Shown here in pieces: positions 5,463-47,316 of a stretch of DNA of 48,021 bases (position 1 is the first letter of the stretch; the number at the start of each line of letters is the position of its first letter). Position numbers and translations under genes: made by a program. This DNA comes from Escherichia phage vB_Eco_CWW26. The stretch lies in sequence record PQ900155.1; one strand, 5' to 3'. The notes under the pieces were generated by a model. The model saw nothing but the letters and a program-made list of their open reading frames with translations, searched no databases and was not told where the DNA came from.

Positions 5463-5742
5463 TACCGTCGACCACTTTGTACCATTGCTCTTTAATATTA
5501 TCCAGTCGTGCTATATGTCTGGTAATTTGAGTTTCAAGATGAGCATGTGCACCCAGTAAACTACCAAATAACACCCATTTATCTTTGTGCATGTGAATGT
5601 GGACACCTGCGTTTTTACCAGTTCTGACGAAATCATATGAATTTTTATAGCTTCTATTCACATATCCTACAATGATTTCCGCTTGTGATATCTCATCGAT
5701 ATTTATTGGTAACGCAAATCTTATCTCTATCTCTTGCGTCAT
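5452..5742 (-). CDS. hypothetical protein (96 aa)
   Basis: ORF track; last gene of a leftward cassette; His-rich segment GVHIHMH...GAHAHLE. Confidence 0.4.
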   Translation of the reverse strand: MTQEIEIRFALPINIDEISQAEIIVGYVNRSYKNSYDFVRTGKNAGVHIHMHKDKWVLFGSLLGAHAHLETQITRHIARLDNIKEQWYKVVDGIIA

Positions 5743-5852
5743 TATTTACCCTTCCACGTTTCAATTAAACTTTCAATACCCAGGAACAGTAAGTAGCCAA
5801 ATACCAACGTTCCGAACCAGTGGTCAGCAATGAAGTTGAGTACGTCAATCAT
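5742..5852 (-). CDS. small membrane protein (36 aa, putative)
   Basis: MIDVLNFIADHWFGTLVFGYLLFLGIESLIETWKGK; one hydrophobic helix; ATGA overlap with upstream gene. Confidence 0.3.
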   Translation of the reverse strand: MIDVLNFIADHWFGTLVFGYLLFLGIESLIETWKGK

Positions 5853-6037
5853 TTCCCACGTCCTCTGAACACTCGATTCAACACTTCCCACAGTCCGGAA
5901 ATTACAGCAACCGGACCAAATGCGACAATTGTCCATGCCTGCCACTTATATTCCAGTTCCAGAGGCACCGTGGCGATTGTTACTATAATTACCCACCCTG
6001 CAAGCAGGATAATCAGTACACCTTTGGTAATATCCAT
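5849..6037 (-). CDS. small membrane protein (62 aa, two predicted TM helices)
   Basis: ORF track; two hydrophobic stretches (LIILLAGWVIIVTIATV and IVAFGPVAVISGLW). Confidence 0.45.
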   Translation of the reverse strand: MDITKGVLIILLAGWVIIVTIATVPLELEYKWQAWTIVAFGPVAVISGLWEVLNRVFRGRGK

Positions 6038-28729: not shown

Positions 28730-29587
28730 ATGGCTTTAGACCGCAGCAACCGTTACCCGGGAAGGTTTGAGAATCCCACAACTGTATCACCCCAGGGAGC
28801 ATTTAAAAACCGCACATCACCAACGGCGGAAGATGGTTCGTATTTCGAGGCTGACTGGGCCAATGACTGGGATGGTTTTTTTGCTCGCATCCTCAACGTG
28901 GCGGGTGTTACGCCAAATGGAACCGTCGATAACGGTACGTCGAGCCAGCTTTACGACGCACTCATGACTGCCACACCGGGTCGGTTGTTGAATGTGCGTA
29001 CACTCACATCGTCTGGGATTTATACCCCGACAACAGGTACGAAGGCCATTAAGGTGACTCTCACCGGTGGTGGTGGCGGTGGTGGTGGTTGTCAGGCAAC
29101 TAGTACATCCGATACGTTCTCTGGTGCCGGTGGTGGCGCAGGTGGGACTGTTGTCGCCTGGATTACTTCCCCAGCGTCGTCATACTCTGTAACGATTGGT
29201 GCTGGTGGTGCCGGCGGCGTGGGTGCAAACGCGGGTTCTGCTGGTGGAAACAGTGTATTCGGCACACTAACAGCGGGTGGTGGTGGTGGTGGTCTGAAAT
29301 CATCTGTTACGTCCACGCCAGGTGGTTTGAGTGGTACAGCAACCGGCGGCCTAATAAACATTCGTGGTGGTGATGGTAGTGATGGTCAGAACGGTACGTA
29401 TTTCGTCACCGGTAACGGTGGGTCATCCTTCTGGGGCGGTGGCGGTCGTGCCGGTGCGTTAGGTGGGGTTACCGGGAAAGCCCCTGGTAGTGGTGGCGGC
29501 GGTGCATATGATGTTGGTGTGAGTGGTACATCATACACCGGTGGAGCGGGTGCTGCCGGTATCGTAATGATTGAGGAATACTCATAA
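28730..29587 (+). CDS. Gly-rich tail fiber protein
   Basis: Glycine runs (TGGGGGGGGC, GAGGGAGG, GGGGGGL) after a fiber-like N-terminus. Confidence 0.5.
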   Translation: MALDRSNRYPGRFENPTTVSPQGAFKNRTSPTAEDGSYFEADWANDWDGFFARILNVAGVTPNGTVDNGTSSQLYDALMTATPGRLLNVRTLTSSGIYTPTTGTKAIKVTLTGGGGGGGGCQATSTSDTFSGAGGGAGGTVVAWITSPASSYSVTIGAGGAGGVGANAGSAGGNSVFGTLTAGGGGGGLKSSVTSTPGGLSGTATGGLINIRGGDGSDGQNGTYFVTGNGGSSFWGGGGRAGALGGVTGKAPGSGGGGAYDVGVSGTSYTGGAGAAGIVMIEEYS

Positions 29588-29818
29588 GGTTTTACAACCT
29601 TCCCACCAGTTTTGCCACCGGGACACTCTGTCCCGGTCGGACATCAGAACTTCCCCGTTATGTGGAATTACCGTAGCGGCTCGTTCAGGGTCGCCATTAA
29701 TCGTCCACAATTCACCACTCGGCGTAAGCAGGTCGTTAGATGGCGGCGGACATTTGCGTACTTCCTGAGTACACGCGGCTAAAGTAAGTACAGATATCAG
29801 CAGGATAAGTTTTTTCAT
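29582..29818 (-). CDS. o-spanin (Rz1-like outer-membrane lipoprotein)
   Basis: Signal peptide with lipobox LTLAAC; proline-rich mature part; ATGA overlap with i-spanin. Confidence 0.6.
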   Translation of the reverse strand: MKKLILLISVLTLAACTQEVRKCPPPSNDLLTPSGELWTINGDPERAATVIPHNGEVLMSDRDRVSRWQNWWEGCKTL

Positions 29819-30129
29819 TTTACAGTCGCATCATACAGGTCGAGGATACCGCTTTCTTTGACACACTGAGCGGTGGCGGAGTCTTTGATTCGGTCACGGT
29901 AGATGGCGACTTTTTCAACGACTTTTTTGGAACGAGCTTCTTTCAGTTCCTGTTGCTTTTTCTGCAATTCCACATCGGAAGCATTGAGTTTTTCTTGTAG
30001 CGCATTACGGGCTTCAACGACTGTCTTATATTCTTTGAAATCGTCCAACTTGACCGACTGCTTCCCTTGTGAATATCCCCACCAGAACGCCAGCGCAAGC
30101 AACACAAGTGCTGGTATAATTGTGCGCAT
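29815..30129 (-). CDS. i-spanin (Rz-like)
   Basis: N-terminal TM helix IIPALVLLALAFWWGY, then a charged coiled-coil region; start overlaps endolysin stop. Confidence 0.6.
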   Translation of the reverse strand: MRTIIPALVLLALAFWWGYSQGKQSVKLDDFKEYKTVVEARNALQEKLNASDVELQKKQQELKEARSKKVVEKVAIYRDRIKDSATAQCVKESGILDLYDATVK

Positions 30130-30671
30130 CATTTCTCCCCCAGTGTATACAGGCACAAATACTCTTCCTGCTCCCGACGAATTGGCTGCCCGGAACAGTT
30201 GTTGCTTTTGATACGGCAGTCTTTACCGCCATCAAAAACCCAACGTGGAATCTGTTTACACGCATTCTTCCAGTCGCCTTTTTGCAGTAACTTAAAGAAT
30301 GTTGACCCCTTACATTTGGTAGGTCCAATGTTGTACGGGCAGAACGATGCAATACCGACCTGTTGCACCGGGTTCAGTTTTACCGGAATATTCTCACGTA
30401 CCCATTCGAGTGACTTCTGCGCTTCCTTATCGTTCAGAAGGTCACATTGCTTTTCGGTAAGTCGCATACCCTTTGTGACTGGTTTACCATCAATGCGTGT
30501 GATTCCACGACAGATGGTCCAGATACCTTTACCGTCCCGGTACGCAGTGGTGCGGTTACCTTCCTTCTCGTTCAGGAACTGGTTGAACAGGTCCGTCTGC
30601 GTGACTACTCCCCCCCCTAATGCAAATACTGCCAGGAGTGCCGTCATTTGCTTACTTAAAGGATTTTTCAT
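30129..30671 (-). CDS. SAR endolysin (GH24 / T4-lysozyme-like)
   Basis: Catalytic signature EKEGNRTTAYRDGKGIWTICRGI; N-terminal Gly/Ala-rich weakly hydrophobic segment TALLAVFALGGGVV typical of a signal-anchor-release domain. Confidence 0.7.
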   Translation of the reverse strand: MKNPLSKQMTALLAVFALGGGVVTQTDLFNQFLNEKEGNRTTAYRDGKGIWTICRGITRIDGKPVTKGMRLTEKQCDLLNDKEAQKSLEWVRENIPVKLNPVQQVGIASFCPYNIGPTKCKGSTFFKLLQKGDWKNACKQIPRWVFDGGKDCRIKSNNCSGQPIRREQEEYLCLYTLGEK

Positions 30672-30725
30672 TTTGTTACACTCGTTGTACAATTAAGCTT
30701 AATCCTAACATATAAAGGCGACAAA

Positions 30726-30836
30726 ATGTACAAGACTAAACCACGTAAAGCAGGTGACGCCGGTGGGACATGTGTTAAACCCCGTGGTAAAACAGGTGAC
30801 GCGGGCGGTTCCAAAGTAAAACGCCGGACCAAATAA
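30726..30836 (+). CDS. small basic Gly-rich peptide (36 aa, putative)
   Basis: Hand-translated MYKTKPRKAGDAGGTCVKPRGKTGDAGGSKVKRRTK with internal repeat K(A/T)GDAGG; weak SD. Confidence 0.2.
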   Translation: MYKTKPRKAGDAGGTCVKPRGKTGDAGGSKVKRRTK

Positions 30837-30839
30837 ACA

Positions 30840-31250
30840 ATGTACACCTTCCTGATTGCCTCGCTAATCGTCAGACCCCGGAGAGCCTCGTTTCTCTTCG
30901 TGCTGGTGGCAACTCTCTTTCAGGAGTTATGTGGTAATATGGATGGTTCGATTTATTTTTTCCTCGCCGCATTTTGTGATTTCATCGTAGCCGGTGTTCT
31001 GTACCATTTTGGAACATCCCGAAAGTCTCTCGACATGATGCTCATCAGCATTGTTTCCATGTCGATCAATCTGACAGGCTGGCTCCTGTGGTTTTTCTAT
31101 CAACCGCTCGATGTCTATGTGGCAATGTTCACGGTGCTGTACTGTGCGGCAATCCTCACGATACTGAAAAAGGATAGTGACGATGCTGGAGGTATTGCGG
31201 TTCATATCGACAACTCTGGTCATCATCCTTATGCTGGCGCAGGTCGTTGA
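30840..31250 (+). CDS. integral membrane protein (3-4 TM; holin or exclusion candidate)
   Basis: Several hydrophobic helices; divergent from the lysis cassette. Confidence 0.4.
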   Translation: MYTFLIASLIVRPRRASFLFVLVATLFQELCGNMDGSIYFFLAAFCDFIVAGVLYHFGTSRKSLDMMLISIVSMSINLTGWLLWFFYQPLDVYVAMFTVLYCAAILTILKKDSDDAGGIAVHIDNSGHHPYAGAGR

Positions 31251-31276
31251 GTGGTATATCAAAGCGAGAAAACATT

Positions 31277-31558
31277 ATGAGCTTTACCGGAAACACACAA
31301 GCCGGAACGGTAGTAGCAAGCGGAACGACGGTAACGGGTCTAATGACTAAGTACGGTATCACCCCGGAAACCATCGGTATCTTCGCAACATTAGTGGGTA
31401 TCGTACTTTCTCTGGTGATGATTTACGGTCACATCAAGCGTATCAGAAATGAATCGGCGGAACGCAAGGAAAAGGAAGCCATTGCGAGAATTGAAAAGGA
31501 AAAGGCAGAGATTGAACTTGCTGAAATGCGCCGAAGGATGAACAACCCGGCGCAGTGA
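31277..31558 (+). CDS. holin-like protein (one TM helix, charged C-terminal tail)
   Basis: TM IGIFATLVGIVLSLVMIYG followed by KRIRNESAERKEKEAIARIEKEKAEIELAEMRRR; start ambiguous (TTG 31247 or ATG 31277). Confidence 0.4.
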   Translation: MSFTGNTQAGTVVASGTTVTGLMTKYGITPETIGIFATLVGIVLSLVMIYGHIKRIRNESAERKEKEAIARIEKEKAEIELAEMRRRMNNPAQ

Positions 31559-31574
31559 CGCGCCGGTAATTTCA

Positions 31575-31916
31575 CTACCCGTAAGGCTTCCACACGACCA
31601 CGGATGCTTTTTCGCATTGCCTTACCATATCCGCAGTCCCATTACCGCCGGGAAACGCAACACAGTAATCGGGTTTTCCAAAGTTTAACATTGCCCAATT
31701 TCGTTTCGGTCCGGCCCCTTTACCATGTGCATTCCACAGGGCATCCATTCTCATAACGAACACGCCGTGTTTCTTAGCCCACATGTCAGCGATGCTATCC
31801 GCACCTCTCGCACCACCGTGGATAATTAGTTCAATTTTGAACGGCAACATCTCCATAGCTTTTTCGAACGCATCAAAATCCGAATAACCCCGCCCACCTG
31901 TTATGAGAACTTTCAT
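31575..31916 (-). CDS. SLOG/DUF2493-like Rossmann-fold protein
   Basis: LITGGRGYSD...HGGARGAD...AFPGGNGT pattern; ATGA overlap with the polymerase gene. Confidence 0.45.
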   Translation of the reverse strand: MKVLITGGRGYSDFDAFEKAMEMLPFKIELIIHGGARGADSIADMWAKKHGVFVMRMDALWNAHGKGAGPKRNWAMLNFGKPDYCVAFPGGNGTADMVRQCEKASVVVWKPYG

Positions 31917-34027
31917 TTTGTGACCCCCAACAACGGCAGAACTAACTTTTCCGCTTCCTGAATGTACCAGTCATAATTTAGTGCACCCCAGTCAAAATCC
32001 TTAGCGTCGGCACACTCTGTCACCTTCCATCCTACATACATCCCGGTTTCACGCACTGCATCATGCTTGCTGCGGCTTTTCGTGTGGATACGCTCGTCCC
32101 ACGGTGTGCCGATGCTGTCGAGTTCTCCAGGTTGACCGGTAATCTCACACATTACCTCGTTGTACACGTCGTCCTTGATACCATTCTTACGCTTCCATGT
32201 GCCCGGTACACCGGTTGGCGGTAACAGCTTAACCAGTGACCCACCATTACGCGAGATAAACACACGTGTGGTATTCTGCATCTCCTGTTCAGCACCCCAC
32301 TCAGGCCAACGCATGACCAGACGTGCGCTTCTGGGCACCTTAGCACGTAGCATAAAGTCGAACGGGTCACGGTGCTGTGTGATGAATGTGCGAATGTCCA
32401 CACCGTGTACGAGGGCTGCTTCAGCTGCGCGGGCAACAATCATCGCCGATGGGTCCTGATGCCACTGGTAATTGTACTCGTAAGCGCCTTTACGCTTGAT
32501 TTTACCGTCCGTACCAACCTGAATATAGTTGTTCACATCTCGCTGATAAACCGAGGCGATATCCTCGCATTCCAGATTCAGTTGTGTGACATCCATCCAC
32601 CACTGACACACATTGTCAACGTGTTCCAGGCATTGCGCCGGGTGGTGCAGGATGAGGCCATCGGTGTTAGTCTGCACGATGGTCATCTGTGGGACTTTAC
32701 GCAACTGTTCGACCAGCATCGCCATACTCAACTGACCAGTAATGGTAATGCTCAACAGACATTTGTGGTCACAGAAAGGGCTGAAGCGACTACCCATATT
32801 CCCGAATGTACCGTTTAGTGCTAGTTTGAGCGTGGCATCGACTACCTTATCACCCGCACGCTTTGCATCACGGCGGCGAAAAAATAACTGTTCGTACACA
32901 TCGCAAAATGTTTCACCAAGGTGCTCGGGATAGTACCGGTTTTTAATGGCGAGCGACGGATACAGACTTGTCACATCGCGCGCGCTCATAACGAAACCGT
33001 CACCGGATTTATAAATGCAGTTCGGAATCCCACTGTGGATACCACCCAGCCCGAATGTATATTCAATACCATCAACAGTGGCGACCATGTCACTAAATAC
33101 GCCTTTGGTGGTCAGTAATTCATCCTGTTGCTTTTTGGTCAACACTACCGATTTCATTCTGTTCATGATATCGGTGAACTCTGTTGTCTCCAGCTTGACA
33201 TATGGAGGAATCACATCGGTGAGCGCAATACGTTCACGAATGGTTACCCCGGAGCAATCTACCCCGGCCTTTTCCAGTTCGTGAACGAATATATCTTTGC
33301 CGATTTTTGTATCGGCGTGGTTCATAAAGTTACGTCCGTATTGCTTTGTCAGTTCCTCGCGGAAATGAATTTTGTCGAGTGAACGTACAAAGAATTTAAG
33401 TGTTTCGCGAACGTCGTGCTTGTTGTATGCGATGAGAATGTCTTTCTGCTGGTCGTTTAGCACCATTCCGACCGGGAATGGCAGGTCTTTTACGTTAGGG
33501 GACTGCATACCCACTTCTAACGCCTTCAGACTAGTGCGTCGGGCTTTATTATCGAAGTGGTTTATTTTGTACAGATCAATCTGCTCGAAAATCTGGTCGC
33601 GGTCCCATATAATTTCTGGCCACTGACCTTCGGGCTTAATCTGTGATTGCGCTTTTGCGTAAATCTGTTCCAGTGTACAACCCGGTGCATTGACCACGTA
33701 GTGCAGCACTGGATAGTCGAATGCCAGGTTATTAAATCCAATCCCACGGGCCTTACTACGTCCCAGGTTGAATACGAATTCGATTAATTGCGACTGCTCG
33801 TTTTTGCGGTCACTGATTTCGAAGATTAACTCCATACCCGTCGCAGCGTGAATAAATGAGGCGGTGAAGATGTTAGGATATGTTTCGATGTCCCACCCCC
33901 AGTCCCGCGGGTCCAGTGGTGCGATGCTGGAGAACGCCGAATCAGCCCCACAGTGGGGGCAATTGTGGAGGTCAGCGGGATAATTTTTGCCACACGTTGC
34001 ATCCTCGCATTTTGATAAATAGTGCAT
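31913..34027 (-). CDS. DNA polymerase (family-B-like motifs, N-terminal zinc ribbon)
   Basis: Exo DxE WGWDIETYPN; motif A DVTSLYPSLAI; motif B-like KLALNGTFGNMG; TDG. ATG at 34027 with GGAGAGGA SD (ORF track starts TTG 34057). Confidence 0.65.
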   Translation of the reverse strand: MHYLSKCEDATCGKNYPADLHNCPHCGADSAFSSIAPLDPRDWGWDIETYPNIFTASFIHAATGMELIFEISDRKNEQSQLIEFVFNLGRSKARGIGFNNLAFDYPVLHYVVNAPGCTLEQIYAKAQSQIKPEGQWPEIIWDRDQIFEQIDLYKINHFDNKARRTSLKALEVGMQSPNVKDLPFPVGMVLNDQQKDILIAYNKHDVRETLKFFVRSLDKIHFREELTKQYGRNFMNHADTKIGKDIFVHELEKAGVDCSGVTIRERIALTDVIPPYVKLETTEFTDIMNRMKSVVLTKKQQDELLTTKGVFSDMVATVDGIEYTFGLGGIHSGIPNCIYKSGDGFVMSARDVTSLYPSLAIKNRYYPEHLGETFCDVYEQLFFRRRDAKRAGDKVVDATLKLALNGTFGNMGSRFSPFCDHKCLLSITITGQLSMAMLVEQLRKVPQMTIVQTNTDGLILHHPAQCLEHVDNVCQWWMDVTQLNLECEDIASVYQRDVNNYIQVGTDGKIKRKGAYEYNYQWHQDPSAMIVARAAEAALVHGVDIRTFITQHRDPFDFMLRAKVPRSARLVMRWPEWGAEQEMQNTTRVFISRNGGSLVKLLPPTGVPGTWKRKNGIKDDVYNEVMCEITGQPGELDSIGTPWDERIHTKSRSKHDAVRETGMYVGWKVTECADAKDFDWGALNYDWYIQEAEKLVLPLLGVTK

Positions 34028-47111: not shown

Positions 47112-47138
47112 AGGCCCGCATTTAGCGGGCTTTGTTTT
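47112..47138. terminator. bidirectional rho-independent terminator
   Basis: GCCCGC-ATTTA-GCGGGC followed by TTTGTTTT; T-rich on the minus side too; between convergent genes. Confidence 0.7.
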
Positions 47139-47316
47139 ATCCAAGTGGAAATTTTTTATCAATCCATTCGTTCATCCTAATTCTCAATCTCTTCACGGAG
47201 TAACTCCAGTCATCGGCCTTATTTAGTATCGACTCAACAACTAAAATAATAATGAATACAGGTAGTACGATTATCCTTCCTGTGAGACTTTTCTTACTCA
47301 TCTTGTGCCATTGCAT
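47137..47316 (-). CDS. small membrane protein (59 aa, putative)
   Basis: ATG at 47316 (MQWHKMSKK...) with GGAAGA SD; TM IIVLPVFIIILVVESIL; within ORF-track frame 47137..47484. Confidence 0.35.
   Translation of the reverse strand: MQWHKMSKKSLTGRIIVLPVFIIILVVESILNKADDWSYSVKRLRIRMNEWIDKKFPLG

Follow-up and report, generated by a model that had tools for sequence, protein, structure and literature searches.

The lysis region of Escherichia phage vB_Eco_CWW26: a predicted signal-anchor-release endolysin with spanins, and a candidate S21-like pinholin in a divergent three-gene operon

The genome of Escherichia phage vB_Eco_CWW26 (PQ900155.1), analyzed here as one window of 48,021 nucleotides (nt), contains a lysis region at 29582-31558, in which a leftward cassette of one endolysin and two spanin genes stands back to back with three small rightward genes. 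A 3-kb query around this region was 100% identical to Escherichia phage ZCEC13 (NC_071140.1 / ON086804.1; 48,021 bp, as the window), which belongs to the genus Jedunavirus and has about 70 relatives on record, for the most part Klebsiella phages. The gene names gp53-gp61, gp12, gp13, gp15 and gp87 follow the numbering of the ZCEC13 RefSeq annotation, where gp54 and gp55 are listed as “Rz-like spanin”, gp56 as “endolysin”, gp57 and gp58 as hypothetical proteins, gp60 as DUF2493 and gp61 as DNA polymerase; related sequences are cited by name or by an L number. All features of a preliminary description of this region were found in place, namely a GH24 endolysin, a spanin of the inner membrane (i-spanin) and one of the outer membrane (o-spanin) in leftward direction and three open reading frames (ORFs) in rightward direction. 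As described there, the strand that encodes the endolysin carries no gene for a membrane protein upstream of it, and the two divergent membrane-protein genes are an ORF of 136 codons with several transmembrane domains (TMDs; 30840-31250) and one of 93 codons with a single strong TMD (31277-31558). Each of the six lysis-region genes showed either a ratio of nonsynonymous to synonymous substitution rates (dN/dS) far under 1 or a PHROG match with E <= 8e-23. The dN/dS values, computed between Jedunavirus pairs for four of the genes, were 0.02-0.10 for gp56, 0.04-0.30 for gp57 (in 8 of 10 pairs, with all indels comprising whole codons), 0.08-0.28 for gp58 and 0.09-0.29 for gp59. All four genes are under purifying selection.

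The endolysin gp56 (30129..30671, minus strand; 180 residues) matched the GH24 family (PF00959, 2.9e-25), phrog_7 (1.1e-53) and the structures of R21 (PDB 3hde, 1.9e-15) and P1 Lyz (1xjt, 5.3e-6). In the comparison with 3hde its catalytic triad E37/D46/T52 (E-8-D-5-T) aligned onto E35/D44/T50 of R21. The alignment opens already inside the N-terminal hydrophobic helix, where FALGGGVV of gp56 falls on AAIGGGAI of R21, thus GGG on the GGG of the signal-anchor-release (SAR) domain. At the N-terminus, K2 and K7 precede an uncharged stretch of 19 residues from Q8 to T26 (9 of the 19 being Gly, Ala or Thr, with no Cys), after which comes D27. On the basis of hydropathy and the GGG match, residues 8-26 (QMTALLAVFALGGGVVTQT; 30594..30650, minus strand) were assigned as putative SAR segment. 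In total the protein has eight Cys, and it shows a conserved C-x7-C insertion relative to R21. In SAR endolysins of the R21 type the freed helix refolds into the enzyme, while the P1 Lyz type employs a disulfide switch. From the GH24 domain, the aligned triad, the composition of the N-terminus and the GGG match we infer that gp56 is an R21-type SAR enzyme with predicted export, tethering and release, in agreement with the SAR reading of the preliminary description. The gp56 homologue of Edwardsiella phage PEi21 carries the annotation “putative SAR endolysin”. Compared with other Jedunaviruses (L002, L015, L017), the first ~55 residues of the ZCEC13 endolysin are dissimilar and its SAR stretch is 3 residues shorter. 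Moreover, ZCEC13 has the canonical D-x5-T spacing, and JD001, BUCT_49532 and RCIP0093 have D-x7-T (SADPPIW).

The start codon of gp56 is of importance for the layout of the whole region. The ATG at 30671, also chosen by RefSeq, is kept in five Jedunavirus sequences and in three other genera. A TTG at 30692 was considered as start and rejected, since the ATG is conserved and the TTG falls within a conserved promoter-like palindrome. The separating region of 147 bp described earlier was based on this TTG and did not hold: with the start at ATG 30671, the non-coding gap between the divergent start codons amounts to 54 bp (30672-30725), and the supposed 147 bp consist mostly of the gp57 gene.

The best holin candidate of the region is gp59 (31277..31558, plus strand; 93 residues; phrog_13707, 2.4e-41), for which a build like that of the pinholin S21 is predicted. 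A weakly hydrophobic segment rich in Gly, Ala, Ser and Thr (approximately residues 9-25) is followed by a turn (ITPE; in the family I-P-x-D/E-I-G-K), a strong TMD (residues 33-51), a basic stretch and a coiled-coil tail at the C-terminus. The AlphaFold2 (AF2) model consists of two helices, residues 7-25, with a predicted local distance difference test (pLDDT) score of ~55, and residues 30-89. Summed on the Hessa scale, segments 12-28 and 33-49 of gp59 gave +6.5 and -2.5, compared to +6.2 and +0.2 for TMD1 and TMD2 of S21. RefSeq names gp59 “microfibrillar-associated 1 family protein”, which looks like a spurious name transfer on a tiny ORF; nothing in this analysis backs the name. Some depositors already label gp59 homologues “holin”.

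The gp59 family, phrog_13707, for which PHROG names no function, is large. A profile search over 1.84 billion representatives yielded small proteins throughout, in 730 clusters at E<=1e-3 or, with the cut-off at E<=1e-10, in 365. A tblastn search of phages with a distant gp59 relative (P0084) gave no match. For the 145 top members cross-matches to other PHROGs were scored. All 145 matched phrog_13707, 22 of them also matched phrog_4237 “holin” (best 4.1e-8), and one member each matched phrog_20 and phrog_1350, both likewise “holin”; these matches were colinear and near full length. The control with S21 itself, confirmed by 100% identity in a phage genome, yielded phrog_20 (1.1e-32), phrog_4237 (4.8e-7) and phrog_1350 (0.0028), hence the same three holin PHROGs. 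No match of the gp59 family was observed to the PHROGs of lambda S (phrog_126), P2 Y (phrog_175) or T7 gp17.5 (phrog_920). By hhalign, the gp59 family aligned with S21 at P=1.4e-4 and a probability of 53% over TMD1, and at P=0.0023 over TMD2 with a smaller profile, while unrelated small membrane proteins used as controls gave P values of 0.18-0.32. A relationship of gp59 to the T7 gp17.5 or P2 Y holins was rejected by hhalign and by their different PHROGs. Because members of the family weakly match exactly the three holin PHROGs of S21 and not those of the lambda, P2 and T7 holins, we regard gp59 as most likely a remote, S21-lineage class II holin (pinholin), to judge from these profile comparisons. 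An S21-like class II holin fits a SAR endolysin.

A different role for gp59 would be that of a “releasin” of the type of gp25 of phage Mu, a membrane-tethered, mostly cytoplasmic protein that would assist the SAR anchor of gp56 in coming out of the bilayer without forming holes. The one strong TMD of gp59 is followed by a charged segment of ~40 residues which is predicted to be cytoplasmic, and K2 and K7 in the short cytoplasmic N-terminus of gp56 resemble K6 and K7 of the releasin-dependent Mu endolysin gp22 (PMC9239132). Like releasin families, the gp59 family is also found beside endolysins that are not of the SAR type. Nevertheless, neither gp59 nor any of its 145 relatives matched DUF2730, which defines the releasins. 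Furthermore, gp25 has 4 periplasmic residues and an anionic cytoplasmic domain of 73 residues, compared to ~32 residues before the TMD and a mixed tail with basic proximal part in gp59, and the PHROG links lead to S21 holins. We consider a releasin function of gp59 highly improbable.

The gene directly upstream encodes gp58 (30840..31250, plus strand; 136 residues; phrog_15451, 1.9e-65), an inner-membrane protein. Its AF2 model (pLDDT 78) shows helices at residues 2-11, 15-31, 36-56, 61-85 and 91-109, i.e., a short N-terminal and four long transmembrane helices, followed by a disordered C-terminal tail. From the positive-inside rule (RPRR, SRK, KK) both termini are predicted to lie inside. Homologues were found in PEi21, CP-T1, PLPE and metagenomes. 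A fold search of BFVD with the gp58 model returned uncharacterised homologues only, and Pfam and NCBIfam scans of gp57, gp58 and gp59 gave sub-threshold noise alone (e.g., COX14, a pilin-like model). As a further candidate relationship we tried LysA of phage P2, a lysis-timing protein with four TMDs; it was rejected at an hhalign probability of 0.4% (P=0.15) and with different PHROGs (phrog_15451 versus phrog_162).

In the preliminary description both rightward membrane proteins had been holin candidates. This was substantiated for gp59, whose family is linked to the S21 pinholin PHROGs, but not for gp58, for which no link to a holin or antiholin family was detectable. That gp58 is the holin all the same, or that gp58 and gp59 form a two-component holin with gp59 as antiholin, timer or accessory protein, appears unlikely to us. 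In favor of it, gp58 is of holin-like size, has several TMDs and a charged C-terminal tail, is always located directly 5' of gp59 and often coupled with it in translation, and is kept in all Jedunavirus records. In phage N4, there is a precedent for two membrane proteins which both possess triggerable holin activity. These points are opposed by the profile data, as Pfam, NCBIfam and PHROG provide no more than “unknown” for gp58 and neither the comparison with P2 LysA nor the BFVD search led to a holin or antiholin. Moreover, the gp58 family is narrower, with 39 proteins versus >194 for gp59 in the same kind of search, and gp58 is absent from at least one relative that bears gp59 (L009). Among phage records, gp59 was found in 70 of 70 related ones and gp58 in 84.

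The first gene of the rightward operon, gp57 (30726..30836, plus strand; phrog_32836, 8.1e-23), encodes a basic, Gly-rich micro-protein of 36 residues with two “GDAGG...K” repeats. The ORF had been noted before as part of the intergenic region. It is indeed present at this place, but it is no intergenic curiosity: with its PHROG match, its dN/dS values and its in-frame indels, gp57 is a genuine gene under purifying selection in a conserved three-gene operon. Peptides of the gp57 type contain 1-3 copies of a D/T-A/G-G-G-x-x-K / GG(R/Q)GK(T/Q)R motif and are encoded directly 5' of a gp58 homologue in Jedunavirus, in Erwinia phage AnSW2-5, in PEi21, there as (TDAGGRGKTRV)x3, in PLPE-like contigs and in L011-L013, L020 and L022. 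In differing lineages the motif is encoded by differing codons. The gp57-like family comprises very basic peptides of 32-44 residues, reminiscent of the N-terminal tails of histones H2A and H4, and always stands directly upstream of a gp58-like gene; members besides gp57 itself are located at L004:2858-2983, L018:2867-3001, L012:3418-3519, L013:3439-3537, L020:2927-3046 and L022:2921-3040. No gp57-like peptide was found in vB_KsaM-C1, CP-T1 and L019. In Klebsiella phage JD001 the homologue (L015 2054-2170; 38 residues, MYKTKSAAVKPRKAGDAGGACVKPRGKTGDAKVKRRTK) is unannotated in the RefSeq record. The gap between the gp57 stop and the gp58 start codon is 3 nt, and in many relatives the stop codon of the gp58-like and the ATG of the gp59-like gene overlap (ATGA). 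This close arrangement suggests coupled translation and a functional partnership. We propose gp58 as a partner or regulator of gp59 and, by likeness to the lysis regulator gp62 of N4, a role of gp57 and gp58 in timing control.

The two spanin genes complete the leftward cassette. The i-spanin gp55 (29815..30132, minus strand; 105 residues; phrog_8821, 2.9e-35) has an N-terminal TMD (residues 4-20) and a charged helical periplasmic domain according to hydropathy and sequence. The o-spanin gp54 (29582..29818, minus strand; 78 residues; phrog_16495 “Rz-like spanin”, 8.9e-41, in agreement with RefSeq) begins with MKKLILLISVLTLAAC, comprising a signal and the lipobox LTLAA|C (L-A-A-C), with Thr at +2 and a Pro-rich mature part of 62 residues. 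The i-spanin TMD and helical domain, the o-spanin lipobox and the overlap of the genes by 4 nt are the features of a two-component spanin of the Rz/Rz1 type. The lipobox LAAC and the non-embedded genes had both been recognized before, as had a “separate” o-spanin gene; because of the 4-nt ATGA overlap the genes are non-embedded but not strictly separate. The gp55 gene in fact shares such an overlap with both of its neighbors, gp54 and gp56. The spanins of JD001 and MSW-3 have already been catalogued in a spanin census (Kongari 2018, PMC6139136).

The 54 bp between the divergent start codons (30672..30725) contain a -10-like TACAAT (30688-30693, plus strand) inside a palindrome TTGTACAA, with a -35-like TTTTCA at 30665-30670. 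The -10-like element is embedded in TGTACAAT, 13-17 nt away from the endolysin start, and the position of TGTA(C/G)AAT is conserved among Jedunavirus, Erwinia phage AnSW2-5, vB_KsaM-C1, PEi21 and L019. The term “-10-like” was used because TG directly abuts the hexamer instead of standing one base upstream; the classification of TGTACAAT as an extended -10 was dropped for the same reason. This conservation suggests a putative divergent control region with a candidate host-type promoter. For the endolysin operon, the promoter scan gave no leftward sigma-70 promoter that was convincing. At the other end of the rightward operon, the terminator scan detected a GC-rich hairpin (CCGGCGC-N6-GCGCCGG; 31547..31566; fold -18 kcal/mol, z=-3.1) over the stop codon of gp59, between the convergent genes gp59 and gp60, which is likely a two-way terminator closing the operon. 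On the left side the tail-fibre gene gp53 (plus strand) and gp54 (minus strand) overlap tail-to-tail by 6 nt (29582-29587). There is therefore no room for a terminator, and late rightward transcripts would continue as antisense into the genes of spanins and endolysin if they do not end within a coding sequence. At 30112-30120 (plus strand), TGGTATAAT, a perfect match to the extended -10 consensus, is present within the leftward i-spanin gene, just below the junction with the endolysin gene (30129-30132), and points antisense over the endolysin gene toward gp57-59; the genome count of such motifs was no higher than chance. An Rfam scan of 29300-31900 and a PADLOC scan gave no match.

The preliminary description had called the position of holin and endolysin genes on opposite strands unusual. 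This was overstated. Holin and endolysin genes are unlinked in T4, T7 and P1, and the same divergent layout as in ZCEC13 was observed in all ~70 Jedunavirus records, in the Yokohamavirus PEi21, in vB_KsaM-C1 and in metagenomic relatives. Comparing these and more distant relatives, gp57-gp58-gp59, or at least the pair gp58-gp59, turned out to be the constant element at the junction of the tail-fibre operon and the leftward replication operon, with a varying endolysin beside it. An inverted SAR-type GH24 lysozyme with spanins occupies this place in ZCEC13 and all Jedunavirus, in PEi21, vB_KsaM-C1 and the contigs L019 and L021. A co-directional soluble GH108 endolysin, followed by a two-TMD protein of 170-190 residues (phrog_1544), was found in CP-T1 and L009-L012, and a convergent Amidase_2 endolysin in L020. 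The trio stands without adjacent endolysin in PLPE, L013 and L022. That endolysins of three unrelated classes are found beside it speaks for a lysis function of the trio. The divergent layout of ZCEC13 probably arose by cassette replacement in inverted orientation.

The protein of phrog_1544 (L005:2483-2992, L009:3282-3854, L011:2861-3418) has a soluble N-terminal half and two C-terminal TMDs. It was seen with soluble endolysins only and is absent wherever the endolysin is of the SAR type. This distribution fits gp59 as a small-hole holin, which would be enough to serve a SAR enzyme but too little for a soluble endolysin. It is equally compatible with phrog_1544 as the holin in those phages and the trio doing something else. 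The phrog_1544 protein may be the large-hole holin of the CP-T1-like phages. A resemblance of this two-TMD protein after the GH108 endolysins to the “3TM holin” family of gene transfer agents gained no support from Pfam scans at E<=5.

The same data bear on a reading in which the trio is no lysis module at all but serves, e.g., superinfection exclusion or another membrane function at the end of the tail-fibre operon. Lysis would then be caused by spontaneous release of the SAR endolysin when the proton motive force falls, or together with some unlinked membrane protein of small size, e.g., gp13 or gp87. The three lineages without an endolysin beside the trio, the extra two-TMD protein of the GH108 relatives, the conserved host-type promoter motif and the slow lysis caused in N4 by SAR endolysins and spanins alone are all in line with it. 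Besides, a hydropathy scan of all annotated coding sequences identified other small membrane proteins, i.e., gp12 (36 residues) and gp13 (62 residues), both within 5742-6037 on the minus strand, and gp87 (59 residues, one TMD; 47137-47316, minus strand), of which gp13 (5849-6037), with two TMDs and a basic C-terminus, is pinholin-like in shape. In spite of this shape gp13 was rejected as holin, as it occurred in only 20 of ~70 related records and showed no similarity to the profiles of gp59 or S21. Both gp13 and gp87 match PHROGs of unknown function only, gp12 matches none, and PADLOC found nothing. Together with the three endolysin classes adjoining the trio in most lineages sampled and the specific PHROG link to S21 holin families, this makes a function of the trio outside lysis distinctly unlikely. 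The RefSeq names of several tiny ORFs, “NADH-ubiquinone oxidoreductase chain 3” for gp12, “glycosyltransferase” for gp15 (49 residues) and “restriction-modification system S subunit” for gp87, look like spurious transfers.

We favor, with a probability of roughly 60%, a lysis system composed of the SAR endolysin gp56 and the spanin gp55/gp54 in leftward direction and an S21-like pinholin, gp59, in the divergent gp57-gp58-gp59 operon. In this system the gp56 lysozyme would leave the cytoplasm via Sec, and its weakly hydrophobic, Gly/Ala-rich N-terminal helix would keep it in the inner membrane in inactive form. The candidate pinholin gp59, with its SAR-like first helix, strongly hydrophobic second helix and basic C-terminus, would depolarise the membrane once it reaches a critical level. 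Upon depolarisation the anchor of gp56 would slip free and the enzyme refold and degrade the wall, and with the wall gone gp55 and gp54 would fuse inner and outer membranes. Probably co-translated partners, gp58 and gp57 would most likely adjust the moment of lysis, acting as antiholin, co-holin or regulator, comparable to N4 gp62. As to its origin, an inverted cassette of SAR endolysin and spanins would have taken the place of a cassette with a GH108 endolysin that was co-directional with the conserved trio and located upstream of it.

We are fully aware that several observations weigh against this assignment. For gp59 itself no holin model was matched; its sole PHROG at E<=0.01 is phrog_13707 “unknown”, and Pfam and NCBIfam contributed nothing relevant. 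None of the 145 family members convincingly reached any Pfam holin family. The link to S21 is transitive via relatives, and the membrane segments on which it is based are short and biased in composition. Helix 1 of gp59 was modeled at low confidence (pLDDT ~55), and the two-TMD topology is a predicted one. A dual start is not conserved, with the upstream in-frame TTG occurring in Jedunavirus only and stop codons just upstream of the ATG in other relatives, for which reason a dual-start antiholin from gp59 was rejected. A promoter of host type, as suggested by the conserved -10-like element, would mean an odd timing for a holin. Three lineages (PLPE, L013, L022) carry the trio without an endolysin next to it, and in the GH108 relatives with their soluble endolysin the phrog_1544 protein is possibly the real holin, leaving another role for the trio. 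A paper on a close relative states that no holin gene was identifiable (PMC10276810).

The connection of gp59 with the S21 lineage, the large extent of the gp59 family and the conservation of gp57-gp58-gp59 as an operon appear to be undocumented so far. It is tempting to see in the trio a new and widespread three-component lysis-timing module, made up of an S21-like pinholin, a four-helix partner and a histone-tail-like micro-protein, which could be combined with SAR-GH24, soluble GH108 or amidase endolysins alike and would be driven by its own promoter instead of that of the endolysin operon. We regard this as a possible, though rather doubtful extension. With the placement of gp59 in the S21 pinholin lineage, ~70 phages and several hundred relatives from metagenomes obtain a holin assignment that can be tested, and Jedunaviruses are in development as Klebsiella therapeutics. 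Moreover, a conserved operon of three small genes is flagged. The uncoupling of holin and endolysin, shared by ~70 sequenced relatives, becomes a lineage-wide, explicable arrangement and not an oddity.

Two observations concern the neighboring replication genes. The gene gp60 (31575-31916, minus strand), beside the DNA polymerase gene, encodes a SLOG-family protein related to YspA/cpYpsA (PF10686, 3.9e-14; RefSeq DUF2493; PHROG “GTP-binding domain”); BUCT_49532 and phiYH65 lack it at this place. In BUCT_49532 (L002 4344-5595) the annotation divides the DNA polymerase gene into pieces around a gene for an HNH endonuclease, and in ZCEC13 the polymerase is encoded by a single ORF of 704 residues (31913-34027).

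Comparing the region with known lysis systems, various degrees of similarity became visible. With Mu releasin gp25 (DUF2730) and the SAR endolysin gp22 it shares basic residues in the cytoplasmic N-terminus of the endolysin and a small single-TMD partner with a cytoplasmic C-terminal domain, although gp59 lacks a DUF2730 match, has a long segment before the TMD and is linked to holins by its PHROGs. In Vibrio phage CP-T1, gp69 is homologous to gp58 and gp70 to gp59, and both are encoded in the corresponding place, with the tail fibre module on one side and that of the DNA polymerase on the other. There, however, all genes are co-directional, the GH108 endolysin is soluble and accompanied by the extra two-TMD protein of phrog_1544, and neither a recognisable spanin nor a gp57-like peptide was found. 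The full gene set in identical divergent order occurs in JD001 and other Jedunavirus, in Edwardsiella phages PEi21 and MSW-3 and in vB_KsaM-C1, except that the spanin genes of PEi21 and KsaM-C1 overlap by ~100 nt, compared to 4 nt in ZCEC13.

The lysis cassette of N4 consists of the SAR endolysin gp61, the pinholin gp63, gp62 as a regulator of lysis, and spanins gp60/60a (bioRxiv 10.1101/2025.11.12.688109). Both phages combine a SAR endolysin and a spanin with two separate small membrane proteins, in N4 the pinholin and a non-essential regulator. The N4 genes are co-directional in one cassette, while ZCEC13 adds the basic micro-protein; by description, gp63 differs by its C-terminal anchor with one TMD and gp62 by its two TMDs. 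With phage 21 (S21-68/71, R21, Rz/Rz1) the region has in common the GH24 SAR endolysin with E-8-D-5-T spacing and a Gly-rich, Cys-free anchor, and the two-component spanin. The candidate holin would resemble S21 in its predicted build, in which a helix of weak hydrophobicity and a turn precede a hydrophobic helix and a basic tail, and in a putative family-level link via phrog_20, phrog_4237 and phrog_1350. Differences lie in the position of the holin candidate, whose gene forms a divergent operon together with two additional conserved genes and does not stand upstream in the endolysin operon, in its missing conserved dual-start antiholin, its longer coiled-coil C-terminus and a similarity that runs via relatives only, and in the spanin genes, which are not embedded. 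In function, the lysis region would follow the scheme of phage 21 and N4, made up of a SAR endolysin, a pinholin and a spanin, perhaps with a regulator in addition. The general picture of phage lysis is unchanged by this, as SAR endolysin, pinholin and spanin constitute an established scheme.

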